Shown here one piece after another: positions 21,301 through 59,797 of a stretch of DNA of 64,000 bases; within the stretch, counting starts at the first letter, position 1; every line of letters begins with the position of its first letter. Under the pieces are notes generated by a model that made no database searches, had not been told where the DNA came from, and saw only the letters and a program-made list of their open reading frames with translations. Source of the DNA: Bacteroidales bacterium (GTDB taxonomy: Bacteria > Bacteroidota > Bacteroidia > Bacteroidales > GWA2-32-17); NCBI GenBank assembly GCA_013314715.1, contig JABUFC010000004.1, forward strand, positions 6,777 to 70,776. Reading direction: 5' to 3'. The position numbers and the translations under genes were made by a program.

Positions 21301-21306
21301 TTACTT

Positions 21307-22212: not shown

Positions 22213-22267
22213 TTTTTATATGAAAAAATCGATAAATAAACTATAAACTAAATATAGCAAACAAAAT

Positions 22268-28201: not shown

Positions 28202-28999
28202 TTAAAGTTTTATATGGTTTTGTATGGCAATAAAATTAGGATTTTCTAAATTTTCTTTATTATATTTAATTTCTTGTAAAGTTTCTATATCGTATATATT
28301 GGCTTTAGCATATTTTAAAATGGCATGACCAGCAGCAGTGTCCCATTCCATAGTCCGTCCAAATCGAGGATAAAGGTGTGCGAGACCTTCGGCAACTTTA
28401 CACATCTTGATTGAGCTTCCGGCTACAATTGTTTCCATTTTAGGATGTTCAGTTTTTAAGGCCTCAATAAAGGCTTGAGTTTGTTCGTTTGCATGGCTTC
28501 GACTAATAGCTATTTTTAGAGGGTTTTTAGTTGTTGAAGTTGGTAATGATACAATCGACGTTTCGTCTATTTGATGATTGTGAACTTTTGCTTTATACGA
28601 ACCAAGTTCTTTTGTCGCAAAATATAGATCGCCGCTAACAGGGCTATATATAACTCCTATTATAGGCTCTTGATTTTCGATTAGTGCTATATTAACAGTA
28701 AATTCTCCATTTTTATTGATAAATTCTTTTGTCCCATCGAGTGGATCGACAATCCAACAGAAATTCCAATTTTTACGAGCATTGTAATCTTTGTTTTCAA
28801 GCTCTTCGCTAATAATAGGTAAGTTAGATTCTTTTAATATTTGAATAATGGTTGCTTGCGATTGTTGATCGGCTATGGTTACAGGTGAAGAGTCGGATTT
28901 TATAGTTATATCATAAGGATTTTGATAATACAATAAAATTGTTTTTCCTGCTTTGATCGCTGCTTTAATAGCAAGCATCAGGTTGTCGTTATAGTTCAT
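28202..28999 (-). CDS. cysQ: 3'(2'),5'-bisphosphate nucleotidase (PAP phosphatase)
   Basis: 265 aa of the inositol monophosphatase fold, with SEE, WIVDPLDGTKEF and WDTAAG motifs. Confidence 0.85.
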   Translation of the reverse strand: MNYNDNLMLAIKAAIKAGKTILLYYQNPYDITIKSDSSPVTIADQQSQATIIQILKESNLPIISEELENKDYNARKNWNFCWIVDPLDGTKEFINKNGEFTVNIALIENQEPIIGVIYSPVSGDLYFATKELGSYKAKVHNHQIDETSIVSLPTSTTKNPLKIAISRSHANEQTQAFIEALKTEHPKMETIVAGSSIKMCKVAEGLAHLYPRFGRTMEWDTAAGHAILKYAKANIYDIETLQEIKYNKENLENPNFIAIQNHIKL

Positions 29000-29142: not shown

Positions 29143-30324
29143 CTATATATATTCTAAAGTTACTGTTTTTAACCATTTTTCTTCTAATTCATTGGCAATT
29201 TGACGTATGACGGTACGTCGTATTTCAATATCTATTGGCAAATTAGGATCTTGGTGTGCTTCGTTAATTTTAGTTCCAATAATAAAATGAATATAATCGC
29301 TATCGAGCAACATTTTAACAATTAAATTAGCAGGTCCTTTTAAAAATAAATATTCTTGTTTAAAATGTTTAAGCAAGTCTAAGACTTTGGTAAGTGTTAA
29401 AATGCCTTCAGTTATTAAATCCACTCCGGGCATATATGAAACGGGTGGGAGGTCGGGATCGATCATATCGAATGTGTCTGTAATGGTTTGTTTTAGTTCG
29501 CGTGCAAAAATATCGGCAGTAGTTGCTCCGCAAATTATTTTTTTGCCTTCAAAATTTAATAGTTTTTGTGCATATGTTTTATCATTTTGTTTATCGAATG
29601 GAGGACCTGTGCATATAAGCAATGAGCGAGGCTCTCTAAAATAAACAACACAAGCCGAAGTGTCGTCGCCAGGCATAAATGAGTCGTGTTTTACTGCTTT
29701 TTTTACTATTTTGTCAGCTAGTTCTTCAGATGATATGGTTGGATTTTTTTGAATATTAGCAGCAATATAATTTTCGATATTATCTATGCCCCATCCAAAA
29801 GGCATTTCGTTTGTTCCCATTCCTGCTTGTACAACACCATCGCTCATAAAAATAATTCTATCTTCTTTTTGTGATTGGAAGGTACAAGTAAGAATTTCTT
29901 TACCTTTGAATTTATCGTTATTTAGCCACATGCATTGCCAACCTACGTCGAGTACTTTATGTCCTCTAAAAACGAGGGTTTTAGGGTTATCATATTCCAC
30001 AATATGAACAGTTCCATCTGATTCAATATCGACAATGGTAAATGTAGCATAACTCATTTTTCGCACGCTACAGACTGGAAGGGTGTTTAATAGAATTTCG
30101 GCTATTTTGTAATGATCGCGATGATTTTTAGTAAAACTCATAGCCATAGTAGCCGTAAGTGTCGCTAAAATGTTTGCTTTAACGCCATGTCCCATGCCGT
30201 CCGAAAGGACTAAAATTGCTCGCTTTTCTTCTTTTATGCGTTGACTAAGAAAAACATCGCCACAAATGCGTTGATTATGTTTATATTGTTGCCTGCAAAA
30301 AACATCTATGTAAAAACGGTTCAT
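29143..30324 (-). CDS. PP2C-type SpoIIE/RsbU family serine phosphatase with extra C-terminal domain
   Basis: 393 aa with ICGDVF...AILVLSDGMGHGVKANILA and SDGV motifs. Its ATG overlaps the upstream stop in an ATGA (30321-30324). Confidence 0.8.
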   Translation of the reverse strand: MNRFYIDVFCRQQYKHNQRICGDVFLSQRIKEEKRAILVLSDGMGHGVKANILATLTATMAMSFTKNHRDHYKIAEILLNTLPVCSVRKMSYATFTIVDIESDGTVHIVEYDNPKTLVFRGHKVLDVGWQCMWLNNDKFKGKEILTCTFQSQKEDRIIFMSDGVVQAGMGTNEMPFGWGIDNIENYIAANIQKNPTISSEELADKIVKKAVKHDSFMPGDDTSACVVYFREPRSLLICTGPPFDKQNDKTYAQKLLNFEGKKIICGATTADIFARELKQTITDTFDMIDPDLPPVSYMPGVDLITEGILTLTKVLDLLKHFKQEYLFLKGPANLIVKMLLDSDYIHFIIGTKINEAHQDPNLPIDIEIRRTVIRQIANELEEKWLKTVTLEYI

Positions 30325-32180
30325 TTTTTACCAGTTTTATAAGACTGAATAACAGAATAAAGCATTTGTTCGGTAGCAGCAGCTTCTTCGCCTAATAAAA
30401 ATCCTATTTTTTGAACCATTTGCAGATTTCTGTCGATAACTTCGTTTAAGCGATTGATAACTTCTTCGTCGCGAATTTCAGGTGTAAATAAATCGCGCAA
30501 TACTGCACCAACAATTTTGTTTTTCTTTATCGAAAAAATAGTGAGATTAATAAGTTTATCGTTAAATTGTATGTCTTTGTTAGTAATGGGTTCGTCGTTT
30601 TCGAGAACGTATGAAAAGAATTGAACTAAATTGGGAGGTAATAAAGTTTTTAAATCGGCACCTGTGAGTTCAGGTATAATTTCGCTTATTTCAATGGCAT
30701 CTTTTCCGAGCAATGTAATAAAACTTTGATTGCTGCGGATTATTTTAAGGTTGAAATCGACAATTACTACTGCTGCTGGAAGTTTTTGTAGCGTAGCATT
30801 GAGTATTTCCATTGCTTGTTGAGCTTGCTCTTTGTCTTTTGTAATTTGTTCCTGAGTTTTTTTTATTTCTTCGTGCGATTTTTGCATTTCTTCGATTTTC
30901 TTTTGAAGGCTGGTAATATAACGATTTCTGTTGTCGAGCGAATTATGAAGGCACATATCGCTTTTGGCTAGTCCTGCAGCCACATAAGTTGCAAAATCTT
31001 TACACGATTTATAACCACAAACTTGGCAGCCTTTGTCGTAATTATCTTCGTGTTTTTTTAATATTTTGAGTGTTTGCAATATTTTTTCTTCAGAAATATT
31101 TAGTCGCTGATCGTTTTCTTCAAATATTGTTTTTATAGCCAACGATTTATATTTATTAACATCCTCTTGCCAATTTTTAAGTTTTATAGCTTGAGCGCGT
31201 TTTTTTGTGTATTCTGATACGAGAGTCGTTTTTTGTAAAATATCTTCATTGCGACTCATACCTGGACCATTAAGGCAACCTTTACAATAAAACAAGTTTA
31301 AATGTTTTTGAACTTGAACGATTTTATTCGAAAACTCTTCTAAAGCATTAATAACATTATTTTTATCTGAAAACGTAATAATTTCACTATTAATATTGCT
31401 TTGGTCGAGGTCGGTTAGTTCAATCCATCCGTTGGGAATGGGAAATAAGCTTCCCATTCTGCTTTGTGGACCATCAAAGTCGCTGTATTCTAATTGTGCT
31501 TCGTTTATGTTAAGTTGAGAAAATAATTCTCTTAATTCTTGAAAAGTTAGTACACAGTTGATATGTTCTTCTGCATGGGGTTTAAAAAAGGCTTTTTTAG
31601 TTGCTGTACACGACGTTATAAAAATTATTTCTGTATCTTGCCCCAATTGTTTGCGAGCAATTTTTGCCATAATTTGCGATGGCGTAAGAATGGGAATTAA
31701 ATTCGAAATTAGTTCCGGAAAGTATTTACAAATAATATCATTAATTACCGGACAAGCAGAAGTTATATAATGTTTGCCTTTAAAATCGCGAATAATTTGT
31801 TGATATTGAATAGACATTAAGTCAACTCCAAACGAAACGTCAAAAATATATTTACCGCCAATTTGTCTGAGCATTTGTGCAAATTTACGATAATCGCTAA
31901 TGTCTGGAAATTCGGCAGCAATTGCAGGGTCAATAAGTATAACATTGTGTTCTTTTTTCAAAATTTGCATGGCTGTTGGAATCCAATGTTGGTATTGAAT
32001 GGCTTCGGTAGGACAAGAAGGAACACAGCTGCCACAATTAACACATCGATTATCGACAATGCGTGCAAAACTTTGACTGGTTTTTACTTCTATTGCTTTA
32101 ACAGGACAGGTTCTAACACAAGAATAGCATAAGATACACTTTGAAGCATCGATGTCATAGATTGCTTTTGTGTTTTCCAT
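30321..32180 (-). CDS. putative sensory [FeFe]-hydrogenase (HydS-like) with C-terminal PAS domain
   Basis: 619 aa with an N-terminal 2x[4Fe-4S] ferredoxin (CILCYSCVRTCP, CVNCGSCVPSCP). H-domain motifs are ITSACPV (L1, Ala at the relay-Cys position), ITSCTATKKA (L2) and FYCKGCLNGPG (L3). An extra Cys cluster GCQVCGYKSCKDF...DMC is followed by a coiled coil and a PAS-like ~110 aa. Confidence 0.8.
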   Translation of the reverse strand: MENTKAIYDIDASKCILCYSCVRTCPVKAIEVKTSQSFARIVDNRCVNCGSCVPSCPTEAIQYQHWIPTAMQILKKEHNVILIDPAIAAEFPDISDYRKFAQMLRQIGGKYIFDVSFGVDLMSIQYQQIIRDFKGKHYITSACPVINDIICKYFPELISNLIPILTPSQIMAKIARKQLGQDTEIIFITSCTATKKAFFKPHAEEHINCVLTFQELRELFSQLNINEAQLEYSDFDGPQSRMGSLFPIPNGWIELTDLDQSNINSEIITFSDKNNVINALEEFSNKIVQVQKHLNLFYCKGCLNGPGMSRNEDILQKTTLVSEYTKKRAQAIKLKNWQEDVNKYKSLAIKTIFEENDQRLNISEEKILQTLKILKKHEDNYDKGCQVCGYKSCKDFATYVAAGLAKSDMCLHNSLDNRNRYITSLQKKIEEMQKSHEEIKKTQEQITKDKEQAQQAMEILNATLQKLPAAVVIVDFNLKIIRSNQSFITLLGKDAIEISEIIPELTGADLKTLLPPNLVQFFSYVLENDEPITNKDIQFNDKLINLTIFSIKKNKIVGAVLRDLFTPEIRDEEVINRLNEVIDRNLQMVQKIGFLLGEEAAATEQMLYSVIQSYKTGKK

Positions 32181-32183
32181 ATT

Positions 32184-32447
32184 TTACTTTATTTTAAGTT
32201 GAGGATAGTGAGTTTTTAAATATTCAATGACTTCATGAAGTGAATGAAATGTTTTTAATGTGTCATCTATTTTACAAAAAGGACCATCTTTACATTCACC
32301 AAAACAGCGTGTGCCTTTAAAATCGATAATATGTTCTAGATGATTTTGATGAAGGTATTCATTTATTTCTTTTACTAAATATTTATTCCCTCGTGCAAAA
32401 CAAGAACTACCTAAGCAAATATTTATTTTTATCTTTTCAATCGACAT
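32184..32447 (-). CDS. small thioredoxin-like [2Fe-2S] ferredoxin
   Basis: 87 aa with the Cx4C...Cx3C pattern (CLGSSCFARG ... RCFGECKDGP), as in NuoE-type clusters. It is the first gene of the minus-strand sensor operon. Confidence 0.7.
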   Translation of the reverse strand: MSIEKIKINICLGSSCFARGNKYLVKEINEYLHQNHLEHIIDFKGTRCFGECKDGPFCKIDDTLKTFHSLHEVIEYLKTHYPQLKIK

Positions 32448-32523
32448 GTGAATAAAAATTTTTTCAAAGGTAAATAAAGTTTCGTTAAAAAGTTGTTTAA
32501 AAACATTTGTTAAAAAAATAACA

Positions 32524-32541
32524 TTGTTTGTGTGTTCACAA
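32524..32541. promoter_or_regulatory. candidate Rex operator
   Basis: TTGTTTGTGTGTTCACAA compared with the consensus TTGTGAAnnnnTTCACAA. The right half-site is perfect and the left half matches 4 of 7. It lies in the divergent promoter region just upstream of the -7 box of hydC. Confidence 0.35.
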
Positions 32542-32549
32542 AAAAGTAT

Positions 32550-32557
32550 TAAATTTG
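32550..32557 (+). promoter_or_regulatory. -7 box TAAATTTG for the hydCBA-sensor operon
   Basis: Matches TAnnTTTG 23 nt upstream of the ATG at 32580. Confidence 0.45.
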
Positions 32558-32579
32558 CCGTATCTATAAATCAATTAAA

Positions 32580-33032
32580 ATGAGCACATTTTCTGATATT
32601 TTATCTTCATATTCTTCTAATAATTATACGCAAATATTGGCTGTTTTTCAGTCTTTGCAGCAACAAAATGGTTATATTACCCATGCAGATATTATTCAGG
32701 TTTCGCAATATTTTAATTTAGCCAGCGAAGAAGTTTATAGTCTTTTGTCGTTTTATCCTCAATTTCGTTTTAAACCCAAAGGTAAATATCATATTGAAGT
32801 TTGTAAGCAATCGGTATGTAGAATGCATAAAAACGATGAAATTGTTTTTTTTATTCAGAATATAATTGGTATAGAACCGGGAGAAATAAGTAGCGATGCT
32901 TTGTTTAGTTTCGATTTTGGTTTGTGTACAGGCATTTGTAAGCCACATATACGTATAAACGATGATATTTTTATTTTTCAATCGCTTGATGAATTAAAGA
33001 AAATTCTTGAACAATATATTAAACTTCGTTAA
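32580..33032 (+). CDS. hydC: NuoE-like [2Fe-2S] subunit of trimeric [FeFe]-hydrogenase
   Basis: 150 aa with Cx4C (VCKQSVCRMH) and Cx3C (GLCTGICKPH) in the thioredoxin-like fold order. Confidence 0.75.
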   Translation: MSTFSDILSSYSSNNYTQILAVFQSLQQQNGYITHADIIQVSQYFNLASEEVYSLLSFYPQFRFKPKGKYHIEVCKQSVCRMHKNDEIVFFIQNIIGIEPGEISSDALFSFDFGLCTGICKPHIRINDDIFIFQSLDELKKILEQYIKLR

Positions 33033-33033
33033 G

Positions 33034-34950
33034 ATGACACTTGTTTCTACTATAAGCGAAATTATAGATAAAGTTATAAATAATGATTTTTCATTTAAAT
33101 GGAAACAACATTTGTTATTCGAAAGTGTAAATAAACCGACTTGCTTTATTTCTGTTACTTCTGCATGTCCAGTTCATACTATTCTTGGAATAAAAAGCGA
33201 AATTCAACGTTATGCTAATGAACGACATATAGAAATTGAGGTATATGAAACGGGGTCGATAGGTATTCTTTCTTTTGAACCGGTTTTGGCTATTCAGTTG
33301 CCGGGCAAAGCAAGACTTTTTTATGCAGAAATAAATGCCGAAGATATATTTGCTTTGTTAGAAGCAGTTTTTTCTTCGTGGGTTCAACATGTTCATTTAA
33401 TAGGTCAATTAGTATTTGAAGGAAGTGAGCCTTGGGCGGGTGTGCAAGTTTTATCTGAAAAATCATGGTTTTGTTTTCCAACGCGTTTTATTACCGAAGC
33501 TTGCGGTTTTGTTTTGCCCGATTCGTTACGATCTGCATTAGCATGTAATCGTTGGACTACTTTCTTAACTTCACTTCGAAACATGTCGCCTGGCGATATC
33601 GTTTTAACCATAATTGAAAGCGAATTGAAAGGGCGGAGTGGTAGTGGTTTTAATACAGGAAAAAAGTGGAAGCTTGCATCTGAAAGAAAAACGGAACAAT
33701 GTTACCTTATTTGCAACGCATTTGAGAGTAATCCGGCATCGGCAATTGGTAGATTATTATTAGAAAGCGACCCACATTTAGTACTCGAATCAATAGCCAT
33801 TAGTGCTTATGCAAACCAATGCAATAAAGCTTATTTAGTTGTTCCTTATTATTATTCATTGGCTATAAAGCGTATTCAAAAAGCTTTGGATGATGCCTAT
33901 GAAAATGGATTATTAGGATTTGATATACAAAAAAGTGGTTTTTCGTTAGATATTATATTGTTTGTCGCTCCCGGTTCATATATCATGGGCGAAGAAACGG
34001 CTATTATTCAAGCTATAGAAGGCAAAAAGGCAATGCCCATAGAAAAACCACCCTATCCAATACAAAAAGGGTTATTTGGAAAACCTACCATTATTAACAA
34101 TATCGAAACGCTTTGCCATGTAACTTATATTGTACGATATGGTGTTCAATGGTTTAAGTCGTATGGTAATTCGCATGGTTATGGTACAAAATTGTTTTCT
34201 GTTTCAGGTGCAAACGTATTAAGGGGTGTTTTTGAACTGCCGTTAGGTACCAGTATGAAAGATATTTATGAGCTTACAAAATGGTCTGATAACGATTCTG
34301 TTAAAGCAATACACATAGGAGGTCCTATCGGTCGCATTTTTAGTCATACTTCATTAAATGAAATGAATTGCAATTACGCCGATTCTATGCAGAATTCATT
34401 TTTAGGTGATGGAACGATTTTGTTTTTAGACAATTCGAACTGTATGGTCGATTATGTTAAAAACGAAATACAATTTATTTGTAGCGAAAGTTGTGGCAAA
34501 TGCTTACCATGTCGCGAAGGGAGTAAAAAAATTGAAGACATTTTAAATTTGTTAACCCATCGCCCTGAAAACGAAAAAAATAAAGAAACGCTTGAGCGTA
34601 TAAAACAAGTAATGCAATTAAACGAATTAGCTACTACTATAGCTGAAACTTCATTGTGTGGATTAGGTAAGCACTTTCCGCTTTTAGTCAGCGATTTAAT
34701 ACAACATTTTAAAGAAGAACTTGAAGAACATTTGTATGAACGACATTGTAGAGCTGGAGTTTGTAAAAATTTGCGACGTTATTATATAAATGTCGAAAAA
34801 TGCATTGGATGCCATGTTTGTTTTAATCGTTGTCCTCAGAATGCAATTGTTGGCGTTATTCAACATCCGCATTTTATTATACAAGAAAAATGCAATTCAT
34901 GTGGAATTTGTTATGGAGCGTGCAAGTTTAGTGCTATAGAAATTAAATAA
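33034..34950 (+). CDS. hydB: NuoF-like NAD(P)H/FMN-binding subunit of trimeric [FeFe]-hydrogenase with C-terminal 2x[4Fe-4S]
   Basis: GRSGSGFNTGKKW (nucleotide site), GEETAIIQAIEG (FMN), SCGKCLPCREG plus SLCGLGKHFP (N3-type cluster), and CIGCHVCFNRCP / CNSCGICYGACK. The start was trimmed from TTG 33007 to the ATG at 33034, 1 nt after the hydC stop. Confidence 0.85.
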   Translation: MTLVSTISEIIDKVINNDFSFKWKQHLLFESVNKPTCFISVTSACPVHTILGIKSEIQRYANERHIEIEVYETGSIGILSFEPVLAIQLPGKARLFYAEINAEDIFALLEAVFSSWVQHVHLIGQLVFEGSEPWAGVQVLSEKSWFCFPTRFITEACGFVLPDSLRSALACNRWTTFLTSLRNMSPGDIVLTIIESELKGRSGSGFNTGKKWKLASERKTEQCYLICNAFESNPASAIGRLLLESDPHLVLESIAISAYANQCNKAYLVVPYYYSLAIKRIQKALDDAYENGLLGFDIQKSGFSLDIILFVAPGSYIMGEETAIIQAIEGKKAMPIEKPPYPIQKGLFGKPTIINNIETLCHVTYIVRYGVQWFKSYGNSHGYGTKLFSVSGANVLRGVFELPLGTSMKDIYELTKWSDNDSVKAIHIGGPIGRIFSHTSLNEMNCNYADSMQNSFLGDGTILFLDNSNCMVDYVKNEIQFICSESCGKCLPCREGSKKIEDILNLLTHRPENEKNKETLERIKQVMQLNELATTIAETSLCGLGKHFPLLVSDLIQHFKEELEEHLYERHCRAGVCKNLRRYYINVEKCIGCHVCFNRCPQNAIVGVIQHPHFIIQEKCNSCGICYGACKFSAIEIK

Positions 34951-35017
34951 AAACAAAGTATGTTAAAAGTTTATAATAGTTTTAGCAGGTTTTTAAAGCC
35001 TAATAAAAAATGATAAC

Positions 35018-36682
35018 ATGAGAAATAATTCTACAATATCAATTACTATAAATGGGATAAAAGTTAAAGCATCGAATGGGGATATATTATTAAATGTTTT
35101 AAACGAAAATGGCATTAAAATACCTACACTTTGTCACTTAAAAGGGCATATCCCACAATATCCATGTCGTATTTGTCTTGTGTATAACGAAATAGATCAG
35201 ACGTATATTCCTTCGTGTAGTACTATAGTTAGCAATGGCATGAGTATTCTAACTCATACACCGAGTTTAATTAAAAAACGGCAACAAATATTAGAAATGT
35301 TGTTGAGTAGCCATCCCGATGATTGTTTATATTGTGTAAAAAATGATGCATGCCATTTACGTATGTTGGCGAGCGAACTTAGTATTGACCAGCGGCGATT
35401 TTATGTAAAAAACATTAAACAAAATAATGATAAATCATCGGCTGCTATTGTTCGCGAATATGCCAAATGTGTTTTATGTGGTAAGTGTATAGAAATATGT
35501 AATCAGCAACAGTGCCATATCTTGCAATTCAACTACAAAGGTATAGAATCGAGGGTAGAGCCTGTATTGGGTAAATTATTAAACCAATCGAATTGTGTTT
35601 ATTGTGGTCAGTGTATAATGGTTTGTCCTACTGCCTCGCTTTACGAAAAAGAAAATATTTCAGCTTATTATACTTCACTTGATACTGTTAATAACAGTAC
35701 TTTTGCTATAATTTCGCCGTTATTAGAATTCGATTTCTCTATCAATTTATTGAATAAATCGCCTCGGGTAAGAGAAAATCAGGCTATTTCTATTATTAAA
35801 AATTCTGGAGCTAATAAAATTTTTAACCTCAATGCCGGAATAGATTTATATTTAAACGAATTGCTCCATGAATTCATTAAAACTAAAAATAAAGGGAATA
35901 CTTTAATCTCTGGTTTCTGTCCATCAGCAGAGTGGTATTTAAAAAAAATGTCATTACCAGACCATTATAAGATTTCAAAAATTCAAAAACCCATACAAAT
36001 TCTTCAACAATTGCTTTTAACGATTTTTCCTAATCAAATATTTCAAATTCATAGTTTCACTACTTGTTTAGCCGAAAAGCAACTTTTTTCGAATCAGGTT
36101 TTAAAAAATAAAGCGTTTGCATATACTGTTCGAGAGTTATTAAAAATAAAAAATGCCACAAGTACATCGTCTATTCGCAACAACTTTAAAACCGATGAGC
36201 CTTTTCATTTATATAGTGGATTGTCATTTTTGCCTTTTATTCCAGGTGGTTTGAGTGAAGCATTGGCTCGTATGATATACCAAATAAAAACACAAAAAGA
36301 TTTAGAAAAAGATAAATTAGAAAGCTTTAGAAATATTGAACAATTTTCGATTCAAACTATTGTAATTGAAAAACAAACTTATATTTTTGGAATTATAAAT
36401 GGCATTGGCAATGTTAAAAAGGCTTTAGAAAATTGGAAAGATAAATCAATTGATTTCATAGAAATATTAGCCTGCCCTAATGGTTGTGTTATGGGTGGAG
36501 GTTCTTCTTTTGAGCACATGCAGAATTTCGATTTAAAGTCTTTTGAAAAGCAGTGGTACGAAAATGTAGAACGAGCACTTATACGCTATCCTCAACGTAA
36601 TTTGCAGCTCATGTCTATGTTGGAGGAGGCTAAGAATAAAACAAATGGAGAAAAAAATTTATTAATAAACGAAGACGAATGA
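35018..36682 (+). CDS. hydA: [FeFe]-hydrogenase large subunit homologue with intact F-clusters but divergent H-cluster pocket
   Basis: 554 aa. N-terminal [2Fe-2S] (LCH...PCRICLV...SCS), His-ligated cluster HPDDCLYCVKNDAC, and CVLCGKCIEIC / CVYCGQCIMVCP. H-domain motifs are SGFCPSAEW (canonical TSCCPxW), FTTCLAEKQL (canonical MPCxxKKxE) and EILACPNGCVMGGG (canonical ExMACxGGCxxGGG). Confidence 0.8.
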   Translation: MRNNSTISITINGIKVKASNGDILLNVLNENGIKIPTLCHLKGHIPQYPCRICLVYNEIDQTYIPSCSTIVSNGMSILTHTPSLIKKRQQILEMLLSSHPDDCLYCVKNDACHLRMLASELSIDQRRFYVKNIKQNNDKSSAAIVREYAKCVLCGKCIEICNQQQCHILQFNYKGIESRVEPVLGKLLNQSNCVYCGQCIMVCPTASLYEKENISAYYTSLDTVNNSTFAIISPLLEFDFSINLLNKSPRVRENQAISIIKNSGANKIFNLNAGIDLYLNELLHEFIKTKNKGNTLISGFCPSAEWYLKKMSLPDHYKISKIQKPIQILQQLLLTIFPNQIFQIHSFTTCLAEKQLFSNQVLKNKAFAYTVRELLKIKNATSTSSIRNNFKTDEPFHLYSGLSFLPFIPGGLSEALARMIYQIKTQKDLEKDKLESFRNIEQFSIQTIVIEKQTYIFGIINGIGNVKKALENWKDKSIDFIEILACPNGCVMGGGSSFEHMQNFDLKSFEKQWYENVERALIRYPQRNLQLMSMLEEAKNKTNGEKNLLINEDE

Positions 36683-38661
36683 ATAAAAATACAAACCATA
36701 AACTGGTATATACCATAAAAGAGCGTTGTAGGGTTTGCTATACTTGTGTAAGAGAATGCCCTGCCAAAGCTATTCGCATCAATAATGGACAAGCCGAAGT
36801 TATACATGAACGTTGTATTGGTTGTGGAAATTGTATTAAAGTTTGTAGTCAAAATGCCAAGACATTTGTACGAAATGATGCCGATGTTTTGGAGCTTTTA
36901 AATGGCTCTAATCAAGTTTTTGCTCTTTTAGCTCCAAGCTTTCCAGTTGAGTTTTGCGAAGTTGATAATTATAAAAAAGTACTCGGAGCAATTAAAAAAC
37001 TTGGTTTTTCTAAAATTATAGAAGTCGCATTTGGGGCTGAACTGGTTGCTCGTAAATACAAAGAATTATATCAAAATGAAAATTCGTTTTATATTACATC
37101 CGATTGTCCGGCTGTTACTTTTTTTGTACGCCAATATTATCCGGAGTTAACGGTTAATTTAGCTCCTATTGTTTCGCCCATGGTTGCTACTGCTAGAGCA
37201 GTAAAAAAATATTACGGACAAGATGTGAAGTTGGTTTTTATTGGTCCTTGTATATCTAAAAAAGTGGAGAGCAACGAAGTAGATGTAGCAATAACCTATA
37301 AAGAGCTACGTAGCTTGTTTAATCAAAAACACATTGTCGAAGACGAATGTCCAGAATCTGATTTTGATTATCCAAAAGCATATAAAGCAACTGTTTTTCC
37401 TATAAATTTTGGACTATCGCAAACGATGGGACGTTATTATGACTTGTTCGAAAATAAATTTTTAGTTGCTCAAGGAAAAGAAGACATGCAGCAGGCTATA
37501 AAATGGTTTTCGGACGAAAGTCACGAAAAAAAGAATCTTGAATTATTGTGTTGCGAAGGTTGTATTATGGGACCTGGCATTACCAATCCTATTGTTAGTA
37601 AATTTGTAAAACAAAATTTACTTATAAGCTATGCACGTCAAAGGTTAAACGAAACGACTACCGAAGAGTTTGAGCAAACGATACAAGCTTTTAGCGGCAT
37701 AGATTTATCCACGAAATTTACTCCACAAGATAGAAGAATTGCTATCCCATCGTACGATGAAATAGATAAGGTTTTAAGAAAAATGGAAAAAAAAACAGCA
37801 TCCGATATGCTTAATTGTGGAGCGTGTGGTTATGCAACCTGTATCGATCATGCCATTGCCATTATTGAAGGAATTGCCGAAACAGAAATGTGCTTACCCT
37901 ATACCATTGAGAGTCTGCATAAATCAGTAAAAGATTTAGCACTTACCAACGATAAGCTTAGTTCGGCACAAATAGCCTTGCGACAAGCCGAAAAGCTTGC
38001 ACACATGGGACAACTGTCGGCAGGTATCGCTCACGAATTGAATAACCCCCTTGGTGTTATTATTATGTATTGTAATTTGTTGCTCGAAGAGTGTCCACCC
38101 GACTCTCCTATGCGTAAAGACCTTGAATTAATAGTAGAACAAGGGAACCGATGCAAAAAAATTGTTAGCGGATTATTAAATTTTGCTCGAAGAAATCAAG
38201 TGAATGCCACTGAAACAGATTTGTATGCATTAACCGAAAAAGCCTTAGAAGCAGTTCTTATACCCGATTTTATTAAAACGAATATTCAAGCAGACAGAAA
38301 ACCAATGTTGGCAATAATTGATGCGGATCAAATATTGCAAGTATTAATTAATCTTATTAGAAATGCAGCCGATGCTATAACTCATAAATCTGGCATTATT
38401 GATATTTTTTTAACAGAAGAACCCAATTATTTTGTTATTAAAGTTAAAGACAATGGAACAGGTATTGCCGAAGAAAATAAAGCAAAACTTTTTGAACCCT
38501 TTTTTACAACTAAACCCATTGGGGTTGGAAATGGTTTGGGCTTGCCAATTGTTTATGGAATTGTTAAAATGCATAAAGGTATTATCGAAGTAGAAACCAA
38601 CGATGATGTTAAAAAAGGACCAACAGGAACAACATTTATTGTAAAACTACCTAAAAATTAA
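36679..38661 (+). CDS. putative sensory [FeFe]-hydrogenase domain fused to a histidine kinase
   Basis: 660 aa with 2x[4Fe-4S] (CRVCYTCVRECP, CIGCGNCIKVCS). H-domain motifs are ITSDCPAV, GPCISKKVE and LLCCEGCIMGPG, with an extra cluster NCGACGYATCIDH...EMC. A coiled coil follows, then H-box SAGIAHELNNPLG and an ATPase with N (LIRNAADA), DNGTGI and GLGLPIV. ATGA overlap with the hydA stop. Confidence 0.8.
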   Translation: MNKNTNHKLVYTIKERCRVCYTCVRECPAKAIRINNGQAEVIHERCIGCGNCIKVCSQNAKTFVRNDADVLELLNGSNQVFALLAPSFPVEFCEVDNYKKVLGAIKKLGFSKIIEVAFGAELVARKYKELYQNENSFYITSDCPAVTFFVRQYYPELTVNLAPIVSPMVATARAVKKYYGQDVKLVFIGPCISKKVESNEVDVAITYKELRSLFNQKHIVEDECPESDFDYPKAYKATVFPINFGLSQTMGRYYDLFENKFLVAQGKEDMQQAIKWFSDESHEKKNLELLCCEGCIMGPGITNPIVSKFVKQNLLISYARQRLNETTTEEFEQTIQAFSGIDLSTKFTPQDRRIAIPSYDEIDKVLRKMEKKTASDMLNCGACGYATCIDHAIAIIEGIAETEMCLPYTIESLHKSVKDLALTNDKLSSAQIALRQAEKLAHMGQLSAGIAHELNNPLGVIIMYCNLLLEECPPDSPMRKDLELIVEQGNRCKKIVSGLLNFARRNQVNATETDLYALTEKALEAVLIPDFIKTNIQADRKPMLAIIDADQILQVLINLIRNAADAITHKSGIIDIFLTEEPNYFVIKVKDNGTGIAEENKAKLFEPFFTTKPIGVGNGLGLPIVYGIVKMHKGIIEVETNDDVKKGPTGTTFIVKLPKN

Positions 38662-38664
38662 AAT

Positions 38665-39042
38665 ATGGCAACAATACTATTAGTGGACGACGATTACGAC
38701 TTTTTATATCAGTCGAAAATCTGGTTTTCGCAAGCTAATTTTAAAGTAATAACATGCAATGCTAGCACTGAAGCAGCTAAGATTATAGAACAAATAAAAC
38801 CCGATATAGCACTCATCGATTTAATGATGGAAACTCACGATGCTGGATTTGTTTTGGCACGAAAAATAAAACAGCTCTATCCCAATTTGCCCGTTATTAT
38901 GCTAACAGCTGTTAGTTCAGAGTTAGGAATTTCGTTCGATACCAACGATCATAATTCAAAAAATTGGCTTCATGTTGATGCTATTATTGATAAAGGGAAA
39001 GATTTTAAATATATACAAAAAATTATTGAACAATATATTTAG
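38665..39042 (+). CDS. single-domain response regulator (receiver only)
   Basis: 125 aa with ILLVDDD, phospho-acceptor context IALIDLMM, and VIMLTA. There is no output domain. Confidence 0.85.
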   Translation: MATILLVDDDYDFLYQSKIWFSQANFKVITCNASTEAAKIIEQIKPDIALIDLMMETHDAGFVLARKIKQLYPNLPVIMLTAVSSELGISFDTNDHNSKNWLHVDAIIDKGKDFKYIQKIIEQYI

Positions 39043-39044
39043 TT

Positions 39045-40175
39045 ATGGAAGTACTTAAAATTTTAGTTATAGACGATGAAGTCGGAATACGTAGTGGGGT
39101 CAATAGAATATTGAACAACTATAAAGTTAATTTTCCTTTTTTAGATGACGAAATTGTATTTGAAGTAAAAGAAGCAGCTTCGGGCGAGGAAGGTATTGAA
39201 ATTATCAATGCCGATAATCCTCAGGTTATTTTGCTTGATAATAAGCTGCCAGGAATGCAAGGATTAGAAGTGCTTGAATATATTCAAAGAGAGAAAATAG
39301 ATGCCTTAGTAGTAATGATAACCAGTTATGCTTCGTTAGAAGTAGCTGTGCAGGCAACACGAAAAGGTGCTTACGATTTTATTCCAAAACCTTTTACACC
39401 ACAAGAACTTAGAACAACTATGGAAACTGTTGCTCGTCATGTCTTTTTAAGAGGTTTAACAAAACAATTAAACACTCAAGGAAAAGTGGTTCGTTTCAGG
39501 TTCTTATCCGTATTATCGCATGAACTTAAAACCCCTCTTAATATTATTGAAGGTTATTTAAAAATGATGAAAGAACGACAAGCAGGCAACGATCTTAGTG
39601 CATACGAAGAAGTAATTGATCGTTCTTTGTTTCGCATACAAAATATGCGGAATTTAATTTTTGACTTACTCGATTTAACCCGTATTGAAACAGGACAAAA
39701 AGAGCGAAAATTATTGCCTGTTAATTTAGCTAAAATAGCAGCTTTATCTATCGATACTTTTACACCTTTAGCCATTCAAAAATCGGTAAAGATCATATAC
39801 GAAGGTCCATCAGAAGTGTTTTTAGATGCTATGGAAGAAGAAATTGAAATTGTATTCAATAATCTTCTTTCTAATGCCATAAAATACAATAAAAACGAAG
39901 GAGAGGTACGATTAATTATTGAGCCTAAAGTAGATCATATTATCGTTATGGTTAAAGATACTGGTATTGGCATGAACGAGGAGGAGGTAAAACGCGTTTT
40001 TGAGGAGTTTGTTAGAATTAAAAATGCAAAAACACAAAATATTTCGGGAAGCGGATTAGGGCTTTCCATTGTTAAAAAAATATGTGAATATTATAATGCT
40101 GAAATTAAAGTAAGTAGCAAAGAAAATCAAGGTACAACGATAATTATTAAATTTAATAAAACCAAATATGAATAA
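39045..40175 (+). CDS. hybrid receiver-histidine kinase
   Basis: 376 aa. N-terminal REC (ILVIDDE, VILLDNKLPGM, KPF), then H-box LSVLSHELKTPLN and HATPase (NLLSNAIKY, DTGIGM, GSGLGLSIV). Confidence 0.85.
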   Translation: MEVLKILVIDDEVGIRSGVNRILNNYKVNFPFLDDEIVFEVKEAASGEEGIEIINADNPQVILLDNKLPGMQGLEVLEYIQREKIDALVVMITSYASLEVAVQATRKGAYDFIPKPFTPQELRTTMETVARHVFLRGLTKQLNTQGKVVRFRFLSVLSHELKTPLNIIEGYLKMMKERQAGNDLSAYEEVIDRSLFRIQNMRNLIFDLLDLTRIETGQKERKLLPVNLAKIAALSIDTFTPLAIQKSVKIIYEGPSEVFLDAMEEEIEIVFNNLLSNAIKYNKNEGEVRLIIEPKVDHIIVMVKDTGIGMNEEEVKRVFEEFVRIKNAKTQNISGSGLGLSIVKKICEYYNAEIKVSSKENQGTTIIIKFNKTKYE

Positions 40176-40785
40176 TATTCCTGAAAAAACAGTAGAAAGA
40201 CTTAGTTTGTATCGAAGAGTACTAATAGATGTTTTACCTACGCAAGATTACATATATTCTCATGAATTAGCATCATTGCTTCATTTAACACCTGTACAAG
40301 TTAGACGCGATTTAATGTTAATTGGTTATAATGGTACTTTACGCAAAGGATATAATATTCAAGACCTTTTGCAACGCTTATCTGATATTTTAGATAGCAA
40401 TACTCCCACCCATATTTGTATTGTAGGCATGGGAAATCTTGGTAGAGCTATCACAGGATATTTTAATGGTCGTCGATCGAAACTTAGAATTGTTGCTGCT
40501 TTTGATAACGATGTTACAAAAACTAACCGAATTATTAGTGGAATTCAATGCTATTCATCGAACGAAATGTACCAAGTTATAAAAAAAGAAAATATTAGTA
40601 TTGGTATTATAACTACACCACCAGAAGTTGCAGCAACGGTATGCGAACAATTAGTAGCTTCTGGAATTAAAGGAATTATGAATTATACACCGGCACGTTT
40701 AAAAGTTCCCGAATCGGTGTTTTTAGAAGAATATGATATGATAACCTCACTCGAAAAACTGGCTTTTTATATTTATCACGCATAG
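40168..40785 (+). CDS. rex: redox-sensing transcriptional repressor Rex
   Basis: 205 aa with winged-helix N-terminus ERLSLYRRVL and Rossmann motif IVGMGNLGRA. It overlaps the upstream kinase gene by 8 nt. Confidence 0.85.
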   Translation: MNNIPEKTVERLSLYRRVLIDVLPTQDYIYSHELASLLHLTPVQVRRDLMLIGYNGTLRKGYNIQDLLQRLSDILDSNTPTHICIVGMGNLGRAITGYFNGRRSKLRIVAAFDNDVTKTNRIISGIQCYSSNEMYQVIKKENISIGIITTPPEVAATVCEQLVASGIKGIMNYTPARLKVPESVFLEEYDMITSLEKLAFYIYHA

Positions 40786-40789
40786 CAAA

Positions 40790-41686
40790 ATGAATGTTTA
40801 TCATAGCTTTGATGATTTTATTGAGATAAAGAATCCAGTAGTAACTACCGGTAGTTTCGATGGAGTTCATCTGGGGCATAAAAGTATTATTCAGCGTTTG
40901 AATCATATAGCGAGGCAGATTGACGGAGAATCGGTTCTGATTACGTTTCATCCGCATCCGCGAAAGGTGCTTTATCCCGATACGGTTGGCAAAGAGCTGT
41001 TTCTTATTTATTCGCAAGAAGAAAAGATTTTAGCACTCGAAAAAGCCGGATTGCAACATTTATTTATTATTGAATTTACAAAAGATTTTGCTCAAACATC
41101 TTCCATCGATTATGCACGAAAAATTTTACATCAAAAACTAAAAGCCAAAGTGGTAGTAGTAGGATTTAATCACAATTTTGGACACAACCGCGAAGGTAAT
41201 TACCAAATGCTTTTCGAACTTGGACAAGCGTTAGGCTTTTGGGTAGAACAGTTGCCCGCCTTAGAAATTGAGCACGAATCGGTAAGCAGTACCCGCATAC
41301 GCAAAGCCATTATGAACGGCGAAATTCAAAAAGCCAATGCTTGCCTCGATGACAACTATTTATTGATTGGGAAAATTGAAAAAATAAATGATTTCTACCA
41401 TATTGCTGTTGAAGAAGATTGCAAATTGCTACCTCCATGCGGTATATATGCAGTAAAAGTATCATTACGTCATCAACAAGAAAAAGCTCTTGCCATCATC
41501 GAGAAATTCGAAAACAATCAAAACAGAACGTTAAAATTACTCACCGGCAAAGAATTGCAATGGCTGAATGAAAAGGCAGTTGTGCTTTTTTATAAAGAAC
41601 TATCTATCTGGAGCGAAAATACGCCTCAACCCGATTTATTGGAGCTATACGAAATATTGAATAAAATTGAAGAATGGATATATTAA
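40790..41686 (+). CDS. ribF: bifunctional riboflavin kinase / FMN adenylyltransferase
   Basis: 298 aa with TGSFDGVHLGH and SSTRIR motifs. Confidence 0.88.
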   Translation: MNVYHSFDDFIEIKNPVVTTGSFDGVHLGHKSIIQRLNHIARQIDGESVLITFHPHPRKVLYPDTVGKELFLIYSQEEKILALEKAGLQHLFIIEFTKDFAQTSSIDYARKILHQKLKAKVVVVGFNHNFGHNREGNYQMLFELGQALGFWVEQLPALEIEHESVSSTRIRKAIMNGEIQKANACLDDNYLLIGKIEKINDFYHIAVEEDCKLLPPCGIYAVKVSLRHQQEKALAIIEKFENNQNRTLKLLTGKELQWLNEKAVVLFYKELSIWSENTPQPDLLELYEILNKIEEWIY

Positions 41687-41688
41687 TT

Positions 41689-44600
41689 TTATCGAAAAGT
41701 TATTATTTTCTTAATCACTAGTTCTTTACTGTCGCTTACTTTTAACAAATATAATCCTTGATTTATATTCAAATCAAAACGAAAAGGACTTGATTCGTTG
41801 ATTTTTAATTGCTGTTGAGCTATTACATTCCCACTTAAATCGGTTAATTCAACCCAAAGTCTATCACCAACCGAATGATATACTTCAATCTGAACCTTAT
41901 TGCCCAATCCTTGCCCAACCTGAACGGTTAATTTGTTATTATTTACGGTACTAAGCAAAGCTACTATTCCAAGCTCTTTCTGATAACCATCGTTGTCTAT
42001 TTCAATCAATTTATAATAAATATAACCGATGGGGACATCCTTATCTTCAAGTGTATAAGAAGTAAATTCGTTTGTATTGCCTTTTGACAAAACCATCCCG
42101 ATAGGAATAAAATGTTCTAAATCGTTTACAGAGCGTTCAATAGCGTAATGACTACAATTTATTTCCGAAGCTGTATTCCATTGTAGATAAGCCGTATTGT
42201 TTTTATACTCGGCTTTAAAATCAATCAATTCAACTGGTAGAGGTCCAATATTCGATTTGGCTATGGCAAAGTCTGAAAAAGCTGTTAATGCTTTTCTTTG
42301 GGCAGTTACCCAGCCACTTCCCATCGATTGATCGCTATTGTTATGTGTTCCTTCTGAAACCCAATCAAAACTACTGTTGGGGCGTTTAATAACCGCATGC
42401 GAGCTGGCAATAGGACCAGGATTGGTGTGTCCACGCGATGTTAAGCTAATATCGTAATTAAACGTACCTGCGTTGGGAGTAAAAGTCCAAAAACCATAAT
42501 CGAGTAATTCGGTAAGTAGGCTCCCCGATATTAATAAGTTCAACGAAGCAATGTTGGTAGAAGTAACATGTGGATTAGTAAATTTTCCATCTATGTATGT
42601 TAAACCGGAAGAGCTATTAAGCTTGATAGTTCCCAATTCGTAATAGCTGCTGGAGCCTAATGGAAAATCGTAGGTGCCGGTAGAAGCTACATAACGACGT
42701 AAATTACCTGAAATGTAACTATTGGTGCTATGTCCTAATATACTTGTAGTGGAGGTATTGTTTACAATAACTTTATTGCTACCGGTAACAACTAAACCCT
42801 TTGTAAGGCTTAAAATATTGCTTACTGTAATATCGTTATTGAGCGAAAATGTATGGGTTGCGGTTGACTTATTAAGGGTGAGATTATAAAAATTGGCATT
42901 ACCACTCCCAGAAAAGCTAGTATTTGCAGACCCTACAAGATTTACTAAACCATTTGTAAAACTAATAGTGCCGTTTTGAGTAATATTGCCATAGACATCC
43001 AAACGGCTGTTAGCGTGGTTCATGGTAAGTGTACGACCGCTTTGAATTTCAATATTGTTGCATTCGGCAGTGGTATATCCATAGGTTGATGGATTTCCTA
43101 TGGTGGGTTCATTGGTAACACCTGATGTTGGAATTAACACATCTACAGATGAAGTAGGAATTTTAAAAGTGTTCCAGTTTTCGCAGTTGAACCAATTAAT
43201 GTCAGATTGACCTGTCCATTTGCCATCCACATAAGTGCCAGCATCAATAATCATTTGTGGACAAGAAGTATTACCTTTATAATCAAAGCCTCCCGTAGCA
43301 TAAGCTGTATTATCGGCATATGTATCCCAATTGGCAGTCCCGTCGTTGATTAAGGCAATCCAATCAAGACGGTTACGGGTGGTGCTTGAAAAATCAATAG
43401 CGTCAGGGTCATCAAACTTTACTTTTGCATTTCCAACTACATTGGTAGTAAAACAGTTCATATTTGGATATAGATTGCAAAATGTAGTGCCTCGATCGCT
43501 ACCTGTTGGCGATGAAGCATTCCATCCACTTTCAGTCCAACCATACAAAACATTGCCGTTATAGGTGCTATGATGAGAAGTGGAATTGGTCCATGTACCA
43601 CCTTGCATAATCCACATATCATCATCTGAATTAAGGTTAAATCCACCAATACTGCCACCAGATAAAGCACTTTTTGTCCAGTTGGCATCGATGGATCCAC
43701 ATGTCCAAATGTCGAAATGAGAACTTGAAGTTACATTTCCACCAGACACTGTCGATTCAAAAACAATAATAGTACCTTTAGGTAATGTTGTCCCGGTGCG
43801 AGTAATGGTTATAACTCCTTCGGTTCCGCCCCATTCACCTGCATATTGTCGTTCGTAACCATTATCGGTTATATATATTTGAGTTCCGGGTAAAATATCT
43901 TTAAAACAAACAAAAGCTATTTGATCGCAACCCGAGGTAGGCAAGTTGGTATTTACTGCAAGAATAGCTAAGTCACCAGGTTCGAGTATAGTAACATTAC
44001 TAATATCGAAATTACTGCTGTTTACATCAGAATATCCCGATGAAGAAGCCGTCAAATAAAAGTTAGTACCAGAAACGGTGTGAATGATGCTTGAAAAAGT
44101 TGCTACACCGCTTGAGGCAATGACGCTAAGTGGCGAGCCGGTCATTGTGCCTGTGCTAATCAACGAAACAGAACCCGTAAAATTAATATCGACATTCCCA
44201 TTTGCATCGGTTAACCCAACTTTAACGGCCGGGGTCATGGTTGCACTAACACCCGTGGTTGTTGGCTGTGTAATAAAACGTAATTCTGTACCAACAACGG
44301 TAAAAACATTTTGTCCATTGGTAGAGCTAATAGCTGTAAATGCCGCACATTGAGAGCCAGAAGCATCGGTAGTAACATTGGTGTTGGAAATAGTAAATAC
44401 AAAATCATCGCCATCGTTATTGCTACCACTGTTGTTGGGGCTTGTTTGAACCGATAGTCTTAGTGTTAGTGTTTTTGATGTTCCATCGGCAATAGAAATA
44501 AGCGGTGAACCTGAAAATTGAATTTGATTTGTAGTAATTACAGCATCCGCAAGTTTTGTTGTGCCATCAAATAAAGCACAAGCTTGAATAGCGTCTGACC

Positions 44601-45684: not shown

Positions 45685-45786
45685 GTTTATACTACTACTA
45701 AAACGTTTAAAACTACACAAAGGTTGCTTTGTTATAGTTAAATAATTGTTAATAAATAAGGAAAACTATTTACTGTTTTCGGTTGT

Positions 45787-59707: not shown

Positions 59708-59797
59708 TGCTAAATTTTGTTAAAATGTTAACATTTATTCAGTTAAGGAATTATTTTTGCAAAAAAAAACTCATGTAAACCAAAAAATAGATAAACT

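Follow-up and report, generated by a model that had tools for sequence, protein, structure and literature searches.

Whether a hydrogenase-like trimer placed between two sensory-type [FeFe]-hydrogenases and the redox repressor Rex is still a hydrogenase, and what the whole arrangement controls, is the question raised by an 11-gene locus at positions 29143–41686 of the window, the stretch of 64,000 nucleotides from a Bacteroidales genome that was analysed here over its full length. The trimer is formed by HydC, HydB and HydA (HydCBA), and the two HydS-type sensors lead to a phosphatase and to histidine kinases. Our analysis leans towards a conserved Bacteroidota redox/H2 control unit in which HydCBA is now a slow, sensor-like or altered-chemistry module, because its catalytic pocket, its flavin site and one HydB cluster have been remodelled and its subunits evolve faster than the signalling proteins. 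The genes of the locus are the following (aa, amino acids; PAS and HK, the sensors bearing a PAS domain and a histidine kinase, respectively; REC, receiver):

29143..30324, minus strand: PP2C/SpoIIE-family Ser/Thr phosphatase (PP2C), 393 aa (Pfam SpoIIE, 1e-15)
30321..32180, minus strand: HydS-PAS, sensory-type [FeFe]-hydrogenase paralogue, 619 aa (Pfam, motifs)
32184..32447, minus strand: thioredoxin-like [2Fe-2S] ferredoxin, 87 aa (Pfam 2Fe-2S_thioredx, 7.7e-8)
32580..33032, plus strand: HydC, NuoE-like [2Fe-2S] subunit, 150 aa (Pfam 2Fe-2S_thioredx, 4e-30)
33034..34950, plus strand: HydB, NuoF-like flavoprotein with C-terminal 2x[4Fe-4S], derived form (Pfam)
35018..36682, plus strand: HydA-like large subunit, M3-type N-terminus and H-domain, 554 aa (Pfam)
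36679..38661, plus strand: HydS-HK, 660 aa (Pfam Fer4, Fe_hyd_lg_C, FeS, HisKA and HATPase_c)
38665..39042, plus strand: single-domain receiver (REC), 125 aa (Pfam Response_reg, 8.5e-14)
39045..40175, plus strand: REC-HisKA-HATPase_c kinase (REC-HK, Rec-controlled), 376 aa (Pfam)
40168..40785, plus strand: Rex, NADH/NAD+-sensing repressor, 205 aa (NCBIfam NF003995)
40790..41686, plus strand: RibF, riboflavin kinase/FAD synthetase (Pfam FAD_syn, 2e-45)

The ten genes from the phosphatase to Rex, their overlaps and the promoter region shared by the two divergent operons (32448–32579, 132 bp) had been described in the first-pass annotation, and all were borne out by the list of open reading frames (ORFs) and by direct reading; the ten ORFs lie where they had been placed and all reading frames are intact. 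The minus operon runs in the order [2Fe-2S] ferredoxin-hydS(PAS)-PP2C and the plus operon in the order hydC-hydB-hydA-hydS(HK)-REC-REC/HK-rex-ribF. ATGA overlaps were read from the sequence at the PP2C/HydS-PAS junction (30321–30324) and at the HydA/HydS-HK junction (36679–36682), and an 8-nt overlap at the REC-HK/rex junction (40168–40175). The ATG at 33034, one base past the hydC stop, is most likely the HydB start, rather than the TTG at 33007; it gives a protein of 638 aa, the length also found in the close relative L088 (comparison loci are numbered from L001). The first gene of the minus operon encodes a ferredoxin that corresponds to the C-terminal half of the NuoE fold, with a Cx4C...Cx3C pattern, and is kept beside HydS-PAS in related loci. 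At the other end, ribF starts 4 nt after rex and follows it in most loci having both sensory branches (two-branch loci), and in Bacteroidota it is conserved as the gene that closes the plus unit; the NCBIfam ribF models scored under their cut-offs for this protein.

HydCBA presents the three-subunit architecture of group A3 hydrogenases, with NuoE-like HydC, NuoF-like HydB and an M3-type HydA, and its sequences are strongly derived. HydC reached 92 bits against the NCBIfam model nuoE_fam (cut-off 142). HydB displayed the Pfam domains Complex1_51K, NADH_4Fe-4S and two Fer4, and matched HydB of Acetobacterium woodii (7q4v_B) with 382 bits. The cysteines of its N-terminal [2Fe-2S] cluster are replaced (A45, S76, L80), and the flavin motif changed from CNADEGDPG to CNAFESNPA and from GRGGGGF to GRSGSGF, HydB thus having neither the full cluster set nor a canonical flavin mononucleotide (FMN)/NADH site; all its other cluster cysteines, those of the N3-type cluster and of the C-terminal 2x[4Fe-4S], are kept. 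HydA contains Fer2_4, NADH-G_4Fe-4S_3, Fer4 and Fe_hyd_lg_C (1e-19), and its best match in the PDB, to which it aligned over its full length, was Thermoanaerobacter kivui HydA1 (8a6t, 235 bits). It lacks the small-subunit domain PF02256 seen in ordinary relatives, and it stayed under the cut-offs of the NCBIfam models NF040763 for group A6 (322 vs. 765) and TIGR02512 for group A (174 vs. 406).

The most pronounced changes occurred around the H-cluster. Instead of the canonical motifs TSCCPxW, MPCxxKxxE and ExMxCxxGCxxGGGxP, HydA reads SGFCPSAEW, TTCLAEKQL and EILACPNGCVMGGGS. The four H-cluster cysteines are kept (C301, C350, C486 and C490, equivalent to Cys300, Cys355, Cys499 and Cys503) and are invariant in the clade to which this HydA belongs. 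The residues around them were replaced as follows: Cys299 by Phe, Met353 and Pro354 by Thr, Lys358 by Glu, Glu361 by Leu and Met497 by Leu, the SPQQ segment having become KPIQ. Where the 53 canonical HydA relatives are at least 97% invariant, 50 of 60 positions were kept in the N-terminal Fe-S part and 32 of 56 in the H-domain. The same derived motif pattern was held by the eight other members of this nine-member clade (44–56% identical), in every one of which the ORF lengths are orthologous, the gene order being identical in L081, L082 and L085–L088. The clade accounted for only 2 of at least 1245 HydA-like clusters at 50% identity in a library of 1.84 billion representative proteins, and cluster scores fell from 679 to 383 bits beyond these two. 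A profile search with the clade alignment, run on one genome per species, recovered at least 80 loci, those listed being all at 34% identity or less and the clade itself not among them. No maturase gene (HydE/F/G) was found within the 64-kb window. The trimer had been described initially as one bifurcating-type enzyme; with the second sphere of the H-cluster altered and NCBIfam scores below the cut-offs, this description was not supported, and bifurcation is doubtful here.

Divergence rates differed clearly between the trimer and its neighbours. Identity to the sister lineage (L085, L086) was 53% for HydC, 65% for HydB and 54% for HydA, as compared to 85% for PP2C, 76% for HydS-PAS, 81% for HydS-HK, 88% for REC-HK and 83% for Rex. 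In this lineage, HydCBA evolves at about twice the rate of the signalling proteins; in 11 other pairs of Bacteroidales loci, HydA identity tracked that of the sensors. The ratios of nonsynonymous to synonymous substitution rates (dN/dS), calculated against the close relative L088, were 0.107 for HydA, 0.103 for HydB and 0.110 for HydC, and ranged from 0.02 to 0.07 over PP2C, HydS-PAS, HydS-HK and REC-HK (0.041 for PP2C, 0.050 for HydS-HK and, as the minimum of the locus, 0.024 for REC-HK). The HydCBA genes are under purifying selection and less constrained than the regulators.

The domains initially proposed for the locus agreed with the Pfam and NCBIfam calls, which placed in this Bacteroidota genome two different HydS-type sensors, one linked to PAS and PP2C and the other to a histidine kinase, together with Rex and a HydCBA-type trimer; Fe_hyd_lg_C was found in both the 619-aa and the 660-aa proteins (7e-34 and 4e-44, respectively). 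HydS-PAS consists of two Fer4, the H-domain and PF04060 (FeS), followed by a coiled coil and a divergent PAS domain. The latter was weak in this protein (PAS_9, 23 bits vs. a cut-off of 27) but similarly placed in the orthologues, PAS-clan families matching the same position in 10 out of 10 of them, mostly below the gathering score. Its motifs are TSACP, TSCTATKK and FYCKGCLNGPG, with the four cluster cysteines present. In HydS-HK, the PF04060 Cys4 domain, followed by a coiled coil, connects the H-domain with HisKA-HATPase_c; the motifs are TSDCP, GPCISKKVE and ELLCCEGCIMGPG, all four cluster cysteines remain, as do Lys358 and Glu361, and Asp takes the position of Cys299. Both sensors share the same plan over the first 420 residues or so (2x[4Fe-4S], H-domain, PF04060 and coiled coil), after which either PAS or HisKA-HATPase follows, and they are 27% identical over 480 aa. 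Both display the group C HydS pattern of cluster cysteines, replacement of Cys299 and of the two Met, C-terminal Cys4 and a signalling domain, in agreement with the replacements reported by PMC10055695. The H-cluster motifs, the H-box AHELNNPL and the G2 box of HydS-HK were conserved in 70 orthologues. Separately, the HydS-HK gene at 2278–4257 of a metagenome contig (L083) was broken into two ORFs (340 and 291 aa), through either a frameshift or an assembly error.

The remaining signalling proteins retained the conserved residues of their families. The HisKA-family boxes (AHELNNPL in one kinase and SHELKTPL in the other, with NA..A, DxGxG and GxGLGL) were conserved in 66–70 orthologues, and REC-HK, matched by Response_reg, HisKA and HATPase_c of Pfam, has conserved receiver and kinase boxes and a complete kinase core. 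Both receivers possess the acidic pocket, the acceptor Asp, the Thr/Ser and the Lys; in the single-domain one, DDD, the phospho-acceptor D within DLMME, and the T and K were conserved in 66 orthologues. PP2C keeps the metal-binding motifs DGMGHG, SDG and DDTS, with D42, G43, H46, D162, G163, D220 and D221 invariant. According to its AlphaFold2 model (pLDDT 85), in which Foldseek found matches to 5mqh (6.6e-14), 5ucg and 3pu9, residues 1 to about 228 of this 393-aa protein are predicted to fold as a SpoIIE/RsbU-type PPM phosphatase. The rest (residues from about 230 to 393; window 29143–29640) is an alpha/beta domain conserved as strongly as the phosphatase domain, with the motifs GATTAD, DPDLPP, TEGILTL and AHQDP; Pfam (E ≤ 1) and PDB sequence searches gave no match to it, and Foldseek gave weak matches to flavodoxin-like UbiX folds (E of about 0.01). 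Rex, which combines a winged-helix domain at the N-terminus with a Rossmann NADH domain, scored 201.8 bits against NF003995 (cut-off 126) and has a conserved GxGxxG. The 11-gene locus encodes no DNA-binding response regulator, STAS protein or anti-sigma protein.

In order to place Rex in this arrangement, the region between the two operons has to be considered. The following elements were located there:

32507..32524, no strand assigned: predicted Rex box 1, TTGTTAAAAAAATAACAT, which fits the clostridial-type consensus TTGTTAANNNNTTAACAA
32524..32541, no strand assigned: predicted Rex box 2, TTGTTTGTGTGTTCACAA, which fits TTGTGAANNNNTTCACAA with 3 mismatches
32550..32557, plus strand: candidate -7 box of the hydC operon, TAAATTTG (TAnnTTTG), read from the sequence
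32465..32472, minus strand: candidate Bacteroidetes-type -7 box of the minus operon, TACCTTTG, as read from the sequence

Comparison of the intergenic regions that separate the ferredoxin gene from hydC in 27 loci revealed a shared tandem element, tTGTTA-N6-TAACAaTGTT-N7-(T/C)(A/C)ACAa, and it was only from this comparison that the TTGTTAA-type box emerged. Its core, TGTTA-N6-TAACA, was present in 25 of the 27 regions and reached, over all loci, a density of 1.39 per kb within the 400 nt that precede hydC vs. 0.010 per kb elsewhere, around 140-fold higher; the window contains four copies vs. 0.29 expected. At the sequence level, the operator form TTGT(G/T)AA-N4-TT(C/A)ACAA was represented by two tandem boxes at 32507–32541, and a second box directly follows the first in most related loci. 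Promoters of Bacteroides follow a -33/-7 pattern (TTTG ... TAnnTTTG). The TTTG at 32527–32530, located 19 nt upstream of TAAATTTG, fits this pattern together with the latter and is a candidate promoter, its -33 element being overlapped by Rex box 2. Either TATATTTG or TTATTTTTG occurs at the hydC -7 offset in related loci, and CAAAGATA at the -7 position of the minus operon in L081 and L085. The form TTGTTAANNNNTTAACAA is a documented clostridial Rex operator (PMC5367854, PMC8457756), and both halves of the shared tandem element take this form. Two other scans were discarded: the window was not enriched in the classical Rex consensus TGTGAA-N6-TTCACA when 3 or fewer mismatches were allowed (43 found vs. 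50 expected), and sigma-70 promoter and terminator counts equalled those of shuffles, the sigma-70 model being unsuitable for promoters of Bacteroidota. Just left of Rex box 1, at 32494–32505, there is a third small palindrome, TGTTTAAAAACA, which also appears in the sister loci L081 and L085.

Outside the locus, a near-perfect Rex box, TTGTTAAAATGTTAACAT, was found at 59717–59734, followed by the -7-like box TATTTTTG at 59752–59759. Both are in the divergent region between an MFS transporter gene (58520–59707, minus strand) and an ORF of 195 aa with no assigned function (59798–60385, plus strand), after which a thioredoxin-like gene is encoded. This predicted box may be a second Rex target.

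How the parts would work together can be outlined as follows. Rex bound at the two tandem predicted operators, which overlie the hydC -33 element, would block the hydC promoter and repress the plus operon at low NADH/NAD+; since rex is part of that operon, Rex would also regulate itself. For this step the operators are supported by sequence and conservation, binding of the repressor being what we infer from them. HydS-HK, with its two [4Fe-4S] clusters and the Cys4 domain beside the kinase, would sense H2 or the redox state through an H-cluster-type site and set in this way the autophosphorylation of its conserved His. From there the phosphate would pass to one or both of two receivers, the single-domain REC and that of the Rec-controlled kinase, a putative route along which all the motifs are intact. 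By analogy with HfsB/HydS of Firmicutes, HydS-PAS and its small [2Fe-2S] partner would control PP2C. HydCBA retains every H-cluster ligand and is under purifying selection; with its [2Fe] pocket, flavin site and N-terminal HydB cluster remodelled, it would no longer be a canonical fast bifurcating hydrogenase, the signalling core being the part kept constant by selection. One integrated H2/NADH control circuit, as suggested initially from the tight coupling of the genes, is plausible, and the conserved tandem predicted Rex boxes in the shared promoter region give this idea its most direct support.

The distribution of this layout was analyzed by searching the six-frame ORFs of the 80 listed loci with the proteins of the window. 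Among the matches listed, around 30 loci presented the same 11-gene two-branch order, nearly all labelled Bacteroidales or Bacteroidota and including that of Draconibacterium orientale. The locus had been regarded as an unusually complete and compact example, which these loci contradict, its two sensory genes having moreover been published already (PMC11406978); the two-sensor plus Rex arrangement is a standard Bacteroidota unit, not an unusual one. In the listed loci of other phyla, among them Planctomycetota, Hydrogenedentota, Myxococcota, Lentisphaeria, Marinimicrobia and Latescibacterota, the phosphatase branch is absent and the order is Rex-HydC-HydB-HydA-HydS-HK-REC-REC-HK. Cys299 and Lys358 occur together in the HydA of only about nine of the listed two-branch loci. 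In a large group of Bacteroidales (L009, L012, L014, L018–L021, L024–L028, L032, L037 and L041), HydA reads ISACPAWVK, TPCMAMKFE and EVMTCPGGCVHGAGL, with Ala in place of Cys299 and Met in place of Lys358; their HydB reads CNAKESDPG, the locus has the same two sensors and its evolutionary rate is normal. HydA of non-Bacteroidota loci (L006, L015, L023, L026, L030, L035–L040 and others) displayed TSCSPGW, with Ser at Cys300, and EVMTCPGGC in L3; a TSCSPGW-type variant is mentioned in PMC11406978. The locus of JBKHIH010000024.1 (L001), labelled as a Thiohalospira metagenome-assembled genome (MAG), is a Bacteroidales-type two-branch locus with scores near-identical to those of L002, and is probably mis-binned.

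These data have to be weighed against other explanations of the trimer. A credible, if clearly less likely, explanation is that it is a working electron-bifurcating group A3 [FeFe]-hydrogenase whose expression is tuned to H2 and NADH by the sensors and Rex, the odd motifs being tolerated and protons following another path. The complete HydC/HydB/HydA architecture, best PDB matches to bifurcating HydABC complexes, the preservation of all H-cluster cysteines and of the GC..GGG of L3, and purifying selection on the three genes are consistent with such an enzyme; the retention of two H2 sensors beside it suggests that H2 is still relevant, and the normal evolution of the ISACP/TPCMAMKFE group means that a variant pocket can persist stably and presumably function. 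Several further observations count against the remodelled module that we favour. The Lys at C+4 (K354) is invariant in the HydA clade and might stand in for Lys358, and the PAS-type sensors of these loci carry their Lys at +4 as well, not at +3, so that the shifted Lys could still hold the distal cyanide. The Asp of the HydB CNADE motif is also substituted in loci with canonical HydA, and its loss therefore carries little weight. The comparison loci were picked by similarity to this HydA, a choice that biases how often canonical and non-canonical HydA occur in the set, and Rex box 2 of the window is a weak match whose 3 mismatches are in the left half. Against a working enzyme stands the replacement of Lys358, Cys299, Met353, Glu361 and Met497 all together, with Phe at the proton-relay position. 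In prototypical enzymes, activity is abolished or strongly reduced when Cys299 is changed to a residue other than Asp (PMC10055695). In addition, PF02256 is absent, NCBIfam scores are well below the cut-offs, the enzyme subunits diverge faster, and HydB has lost the N-terminal [2Fe-2S] cluster, a complete set of HydB clusters having been argued to be necessary for bifurcation (PMC11406978).

The same losses can be read in a more radical way. A doubtful proposal is that, in this small Bacteroidales clade, the HydABC-like complex is no longer a hydrogenase and acts as a third Fe-S/flavin input of an 11-gene redox/H2 sensory machine formed by the two HydS, the phosphorelay, PP2C and Rex, with its output elsewhere in the genome. 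Less probable still is that HydCBA, having lost hydrogenase chemistry, serves as an Fe-S/flavin relay linked to NAD(H) and ferredoxin, or as a scaffold for the adjacent sensors, in the manner of Nar1/NARFL. These eukaryotic proteins, which function in cytosolic Fe-S assembly, keep the Fe-S cysteines of the [FeFe]-hydrogenase fold without hydrogenase chemistry; their context is unrelated and they provide an analogy only. The loss of the pocket motifs, of PF02256 and of the HydB cluster, the drift of pocket residues while Fe-S ligands are strictly kept, and the stronger constraint on the signalling genes than on the presumed enzyme would all suit a relay or scaffold. There is, however, no positive evidence of an alternative activity, the flavin motif is itself altered, and L3 and the equivalents of Pro231 and Pro324 remain. 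The low identity to all relatives and the loss of canonical motifs might also suggest decaying pseudogenes carried along by conserved regulators. We rejected this explanation, to which we give hardly any probability: with a dN/dS of about 0.1 the HydCBA genes are not pseudogenes, their frames are intact with orthologous lengths in the clade, and the clade-specific motifs are conserved.

The control unit with a remodelled trimer resembles several known systems, from each of which it differs in some respect. The BfuABC/HydABC sub-type V clusters with bfuT (Hydrogenedentota, Caldithrix abyssi; PMC11406978) present the same hydC-hydB-hydA order followed by an HK-fused sensor. In those of Bacteroidota a second, PAS-type sensory gene is located upstream and divergently, as here: Perlabentimonas, Tenuifilum and Williamwhitmania have one bfuT upstream of bfuC and another downstream of bfuA, with implications that were called unclear, and variation in BfuA motifs was also reported (PMC11406978). 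That work does not include Rex operators, the REC/REC-HK pair, PP2C or ribF as conserved parts, and the BfuA and BfuB it describes are far less derived than the proteins of the window (K358E, C299F and the loss of the N-terminal HydB cluster). The HydABC complexes of T. kivui (8a6t), Thermotoga maritima (7p5h) and A. woodii (7q4v) share subunits, domain order and Fe-S ligand pattern with HydCBA (235–382 bits); in contrast to them, the second-sphere H-cluster residues are replaced here, the small-subunit-like C-terminal domain is absent, HydB lacks the N-terminal [2Fe-2S] cysteines and the flavin motif is altered.

Regarding the sensors, TmHydS (PAS type) and TamHydS (M2e) likewise have an H-domain with all the cluster cysteines and genes that adjoin a trimeric group A enzyme (PMC10055695, PMC8163306). 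As in these proteins, Cys299 is replaced in the sensors of the window (by Ala in HydS-PAS and by Asp in HydS-HK), with Ser or Gly standing at Met353 and Phe or Leu at Met497; the difference lies in the presence of two sensor types in one locus, one of them fused to a histidine kinase so that a PAS relay is not needed. In hfsABCD of Thermoanaerobacterium saccharolyticum and around HydS of Ruminococcus albus, a HydS with a PAS domain is likewise accompanied by a small Fe-S protein and by signalling genes downstream; there, genetics in Firmicutes indicated a regulatory, not catalytic, role of the PAS-type protein and a link to Rex and adhE was discussed (PMC5707799); those are Firmicutes with another partner hydrogenase, and no histidine-kinase branch was described there. 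In Elusimicrobia, a HATPase-fused group C hydrogenase stands beside a trimeric group A enzyme and Rex (10.1101/765248), and in Petrimonas mucosa an HK-linked group C1 protein is encoded near hnd genes (PMC7768429), the HK-fused type being labelled inconsistently as C1 (PMC7768429) or C3 (PMC11406978). The REC-HisKA-HATPase_c layout paired with an upstream kinase recalls LvrB of Leptospira (PMC13269768), a resemblance that is architectural only, both for HydS-HK against the LvrB model NF047466 (100 bits, cut-off 500) and for REC-HK against the LvrA model NF047465 (116.9 bits, cut-off 1200). With the Rex regulons of Clostridia (PMC5367854, PMC8457756), where hydrogenase and fermentation genes are typical targets, the locus shares the operator form; it differs in having two tandem boxes in a divergent promoter and rex inside the regulated operon, in a Bacteroidota genome. 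No functional characterisation of the two-sensor locus in Bacteroidota was found in the literature.

The type of locus is thus already known, and what is added here are the conserved tandem predicted Rex operators, the derived enzyme module and its faster evolution. The two-sensor plus Rex unit is widely conserved and has cultured carriers (Draconibacterium in this work; Perlabentimonas, Tenuifilum, Williamwhitmania and Petrimonas in the literature), which makes genetics feasible, and the two tandem predicted Rex operators over the hydC promoter offer a concrete regulatory link. The signalling proteins are more constrained here than the enzyme that they are presumed to regulate, an enzyme without residues regarded as essential for H2 catalysis. 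Binding of the [2Fe] cofactor by the derived HydA would widen the known range of H-cluster environments; if the cofactor is not bound, a bacterial hydrogenase fold would have been turned to another use. Were the trimer an input of a sensory machine, the clade would represent a natural experiment in which 'sensory' [FeFe]-hydrogenases are kept for reasons beyond regulating the adjacent enzyme. For metagenomic annotation, HydA-like proteins of this kind should not be counted as H2-producing group A3.

Among the neighbouring genes, one that flanks the locus encodes a type IX secretion system (T9SS) sorting domain, and the nearest relatives are all Bacteroidales MAGs; the flanking genes and these relatives place the window in Bacteroidales. 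CysQ, at 28202–28999, adjoins the locus on the PP2C side (TIGR01331, 259 bits, over the cut-off); as an 'inositol monophosphatase' it had been a candidate member, which was rejected, as it goes with the sulfate-assimilation genes at about 20704–23539. Beyond ribF, a minus-strand ORF of 1343 aa with a HYDIN/VesB-like immunoglobulin (Ig) domain extends over 41689–45720, where alone in the window the G+C content is raised (0.39–0.40 vs. about 0.32), and its position holds a different gene in the sister loci.

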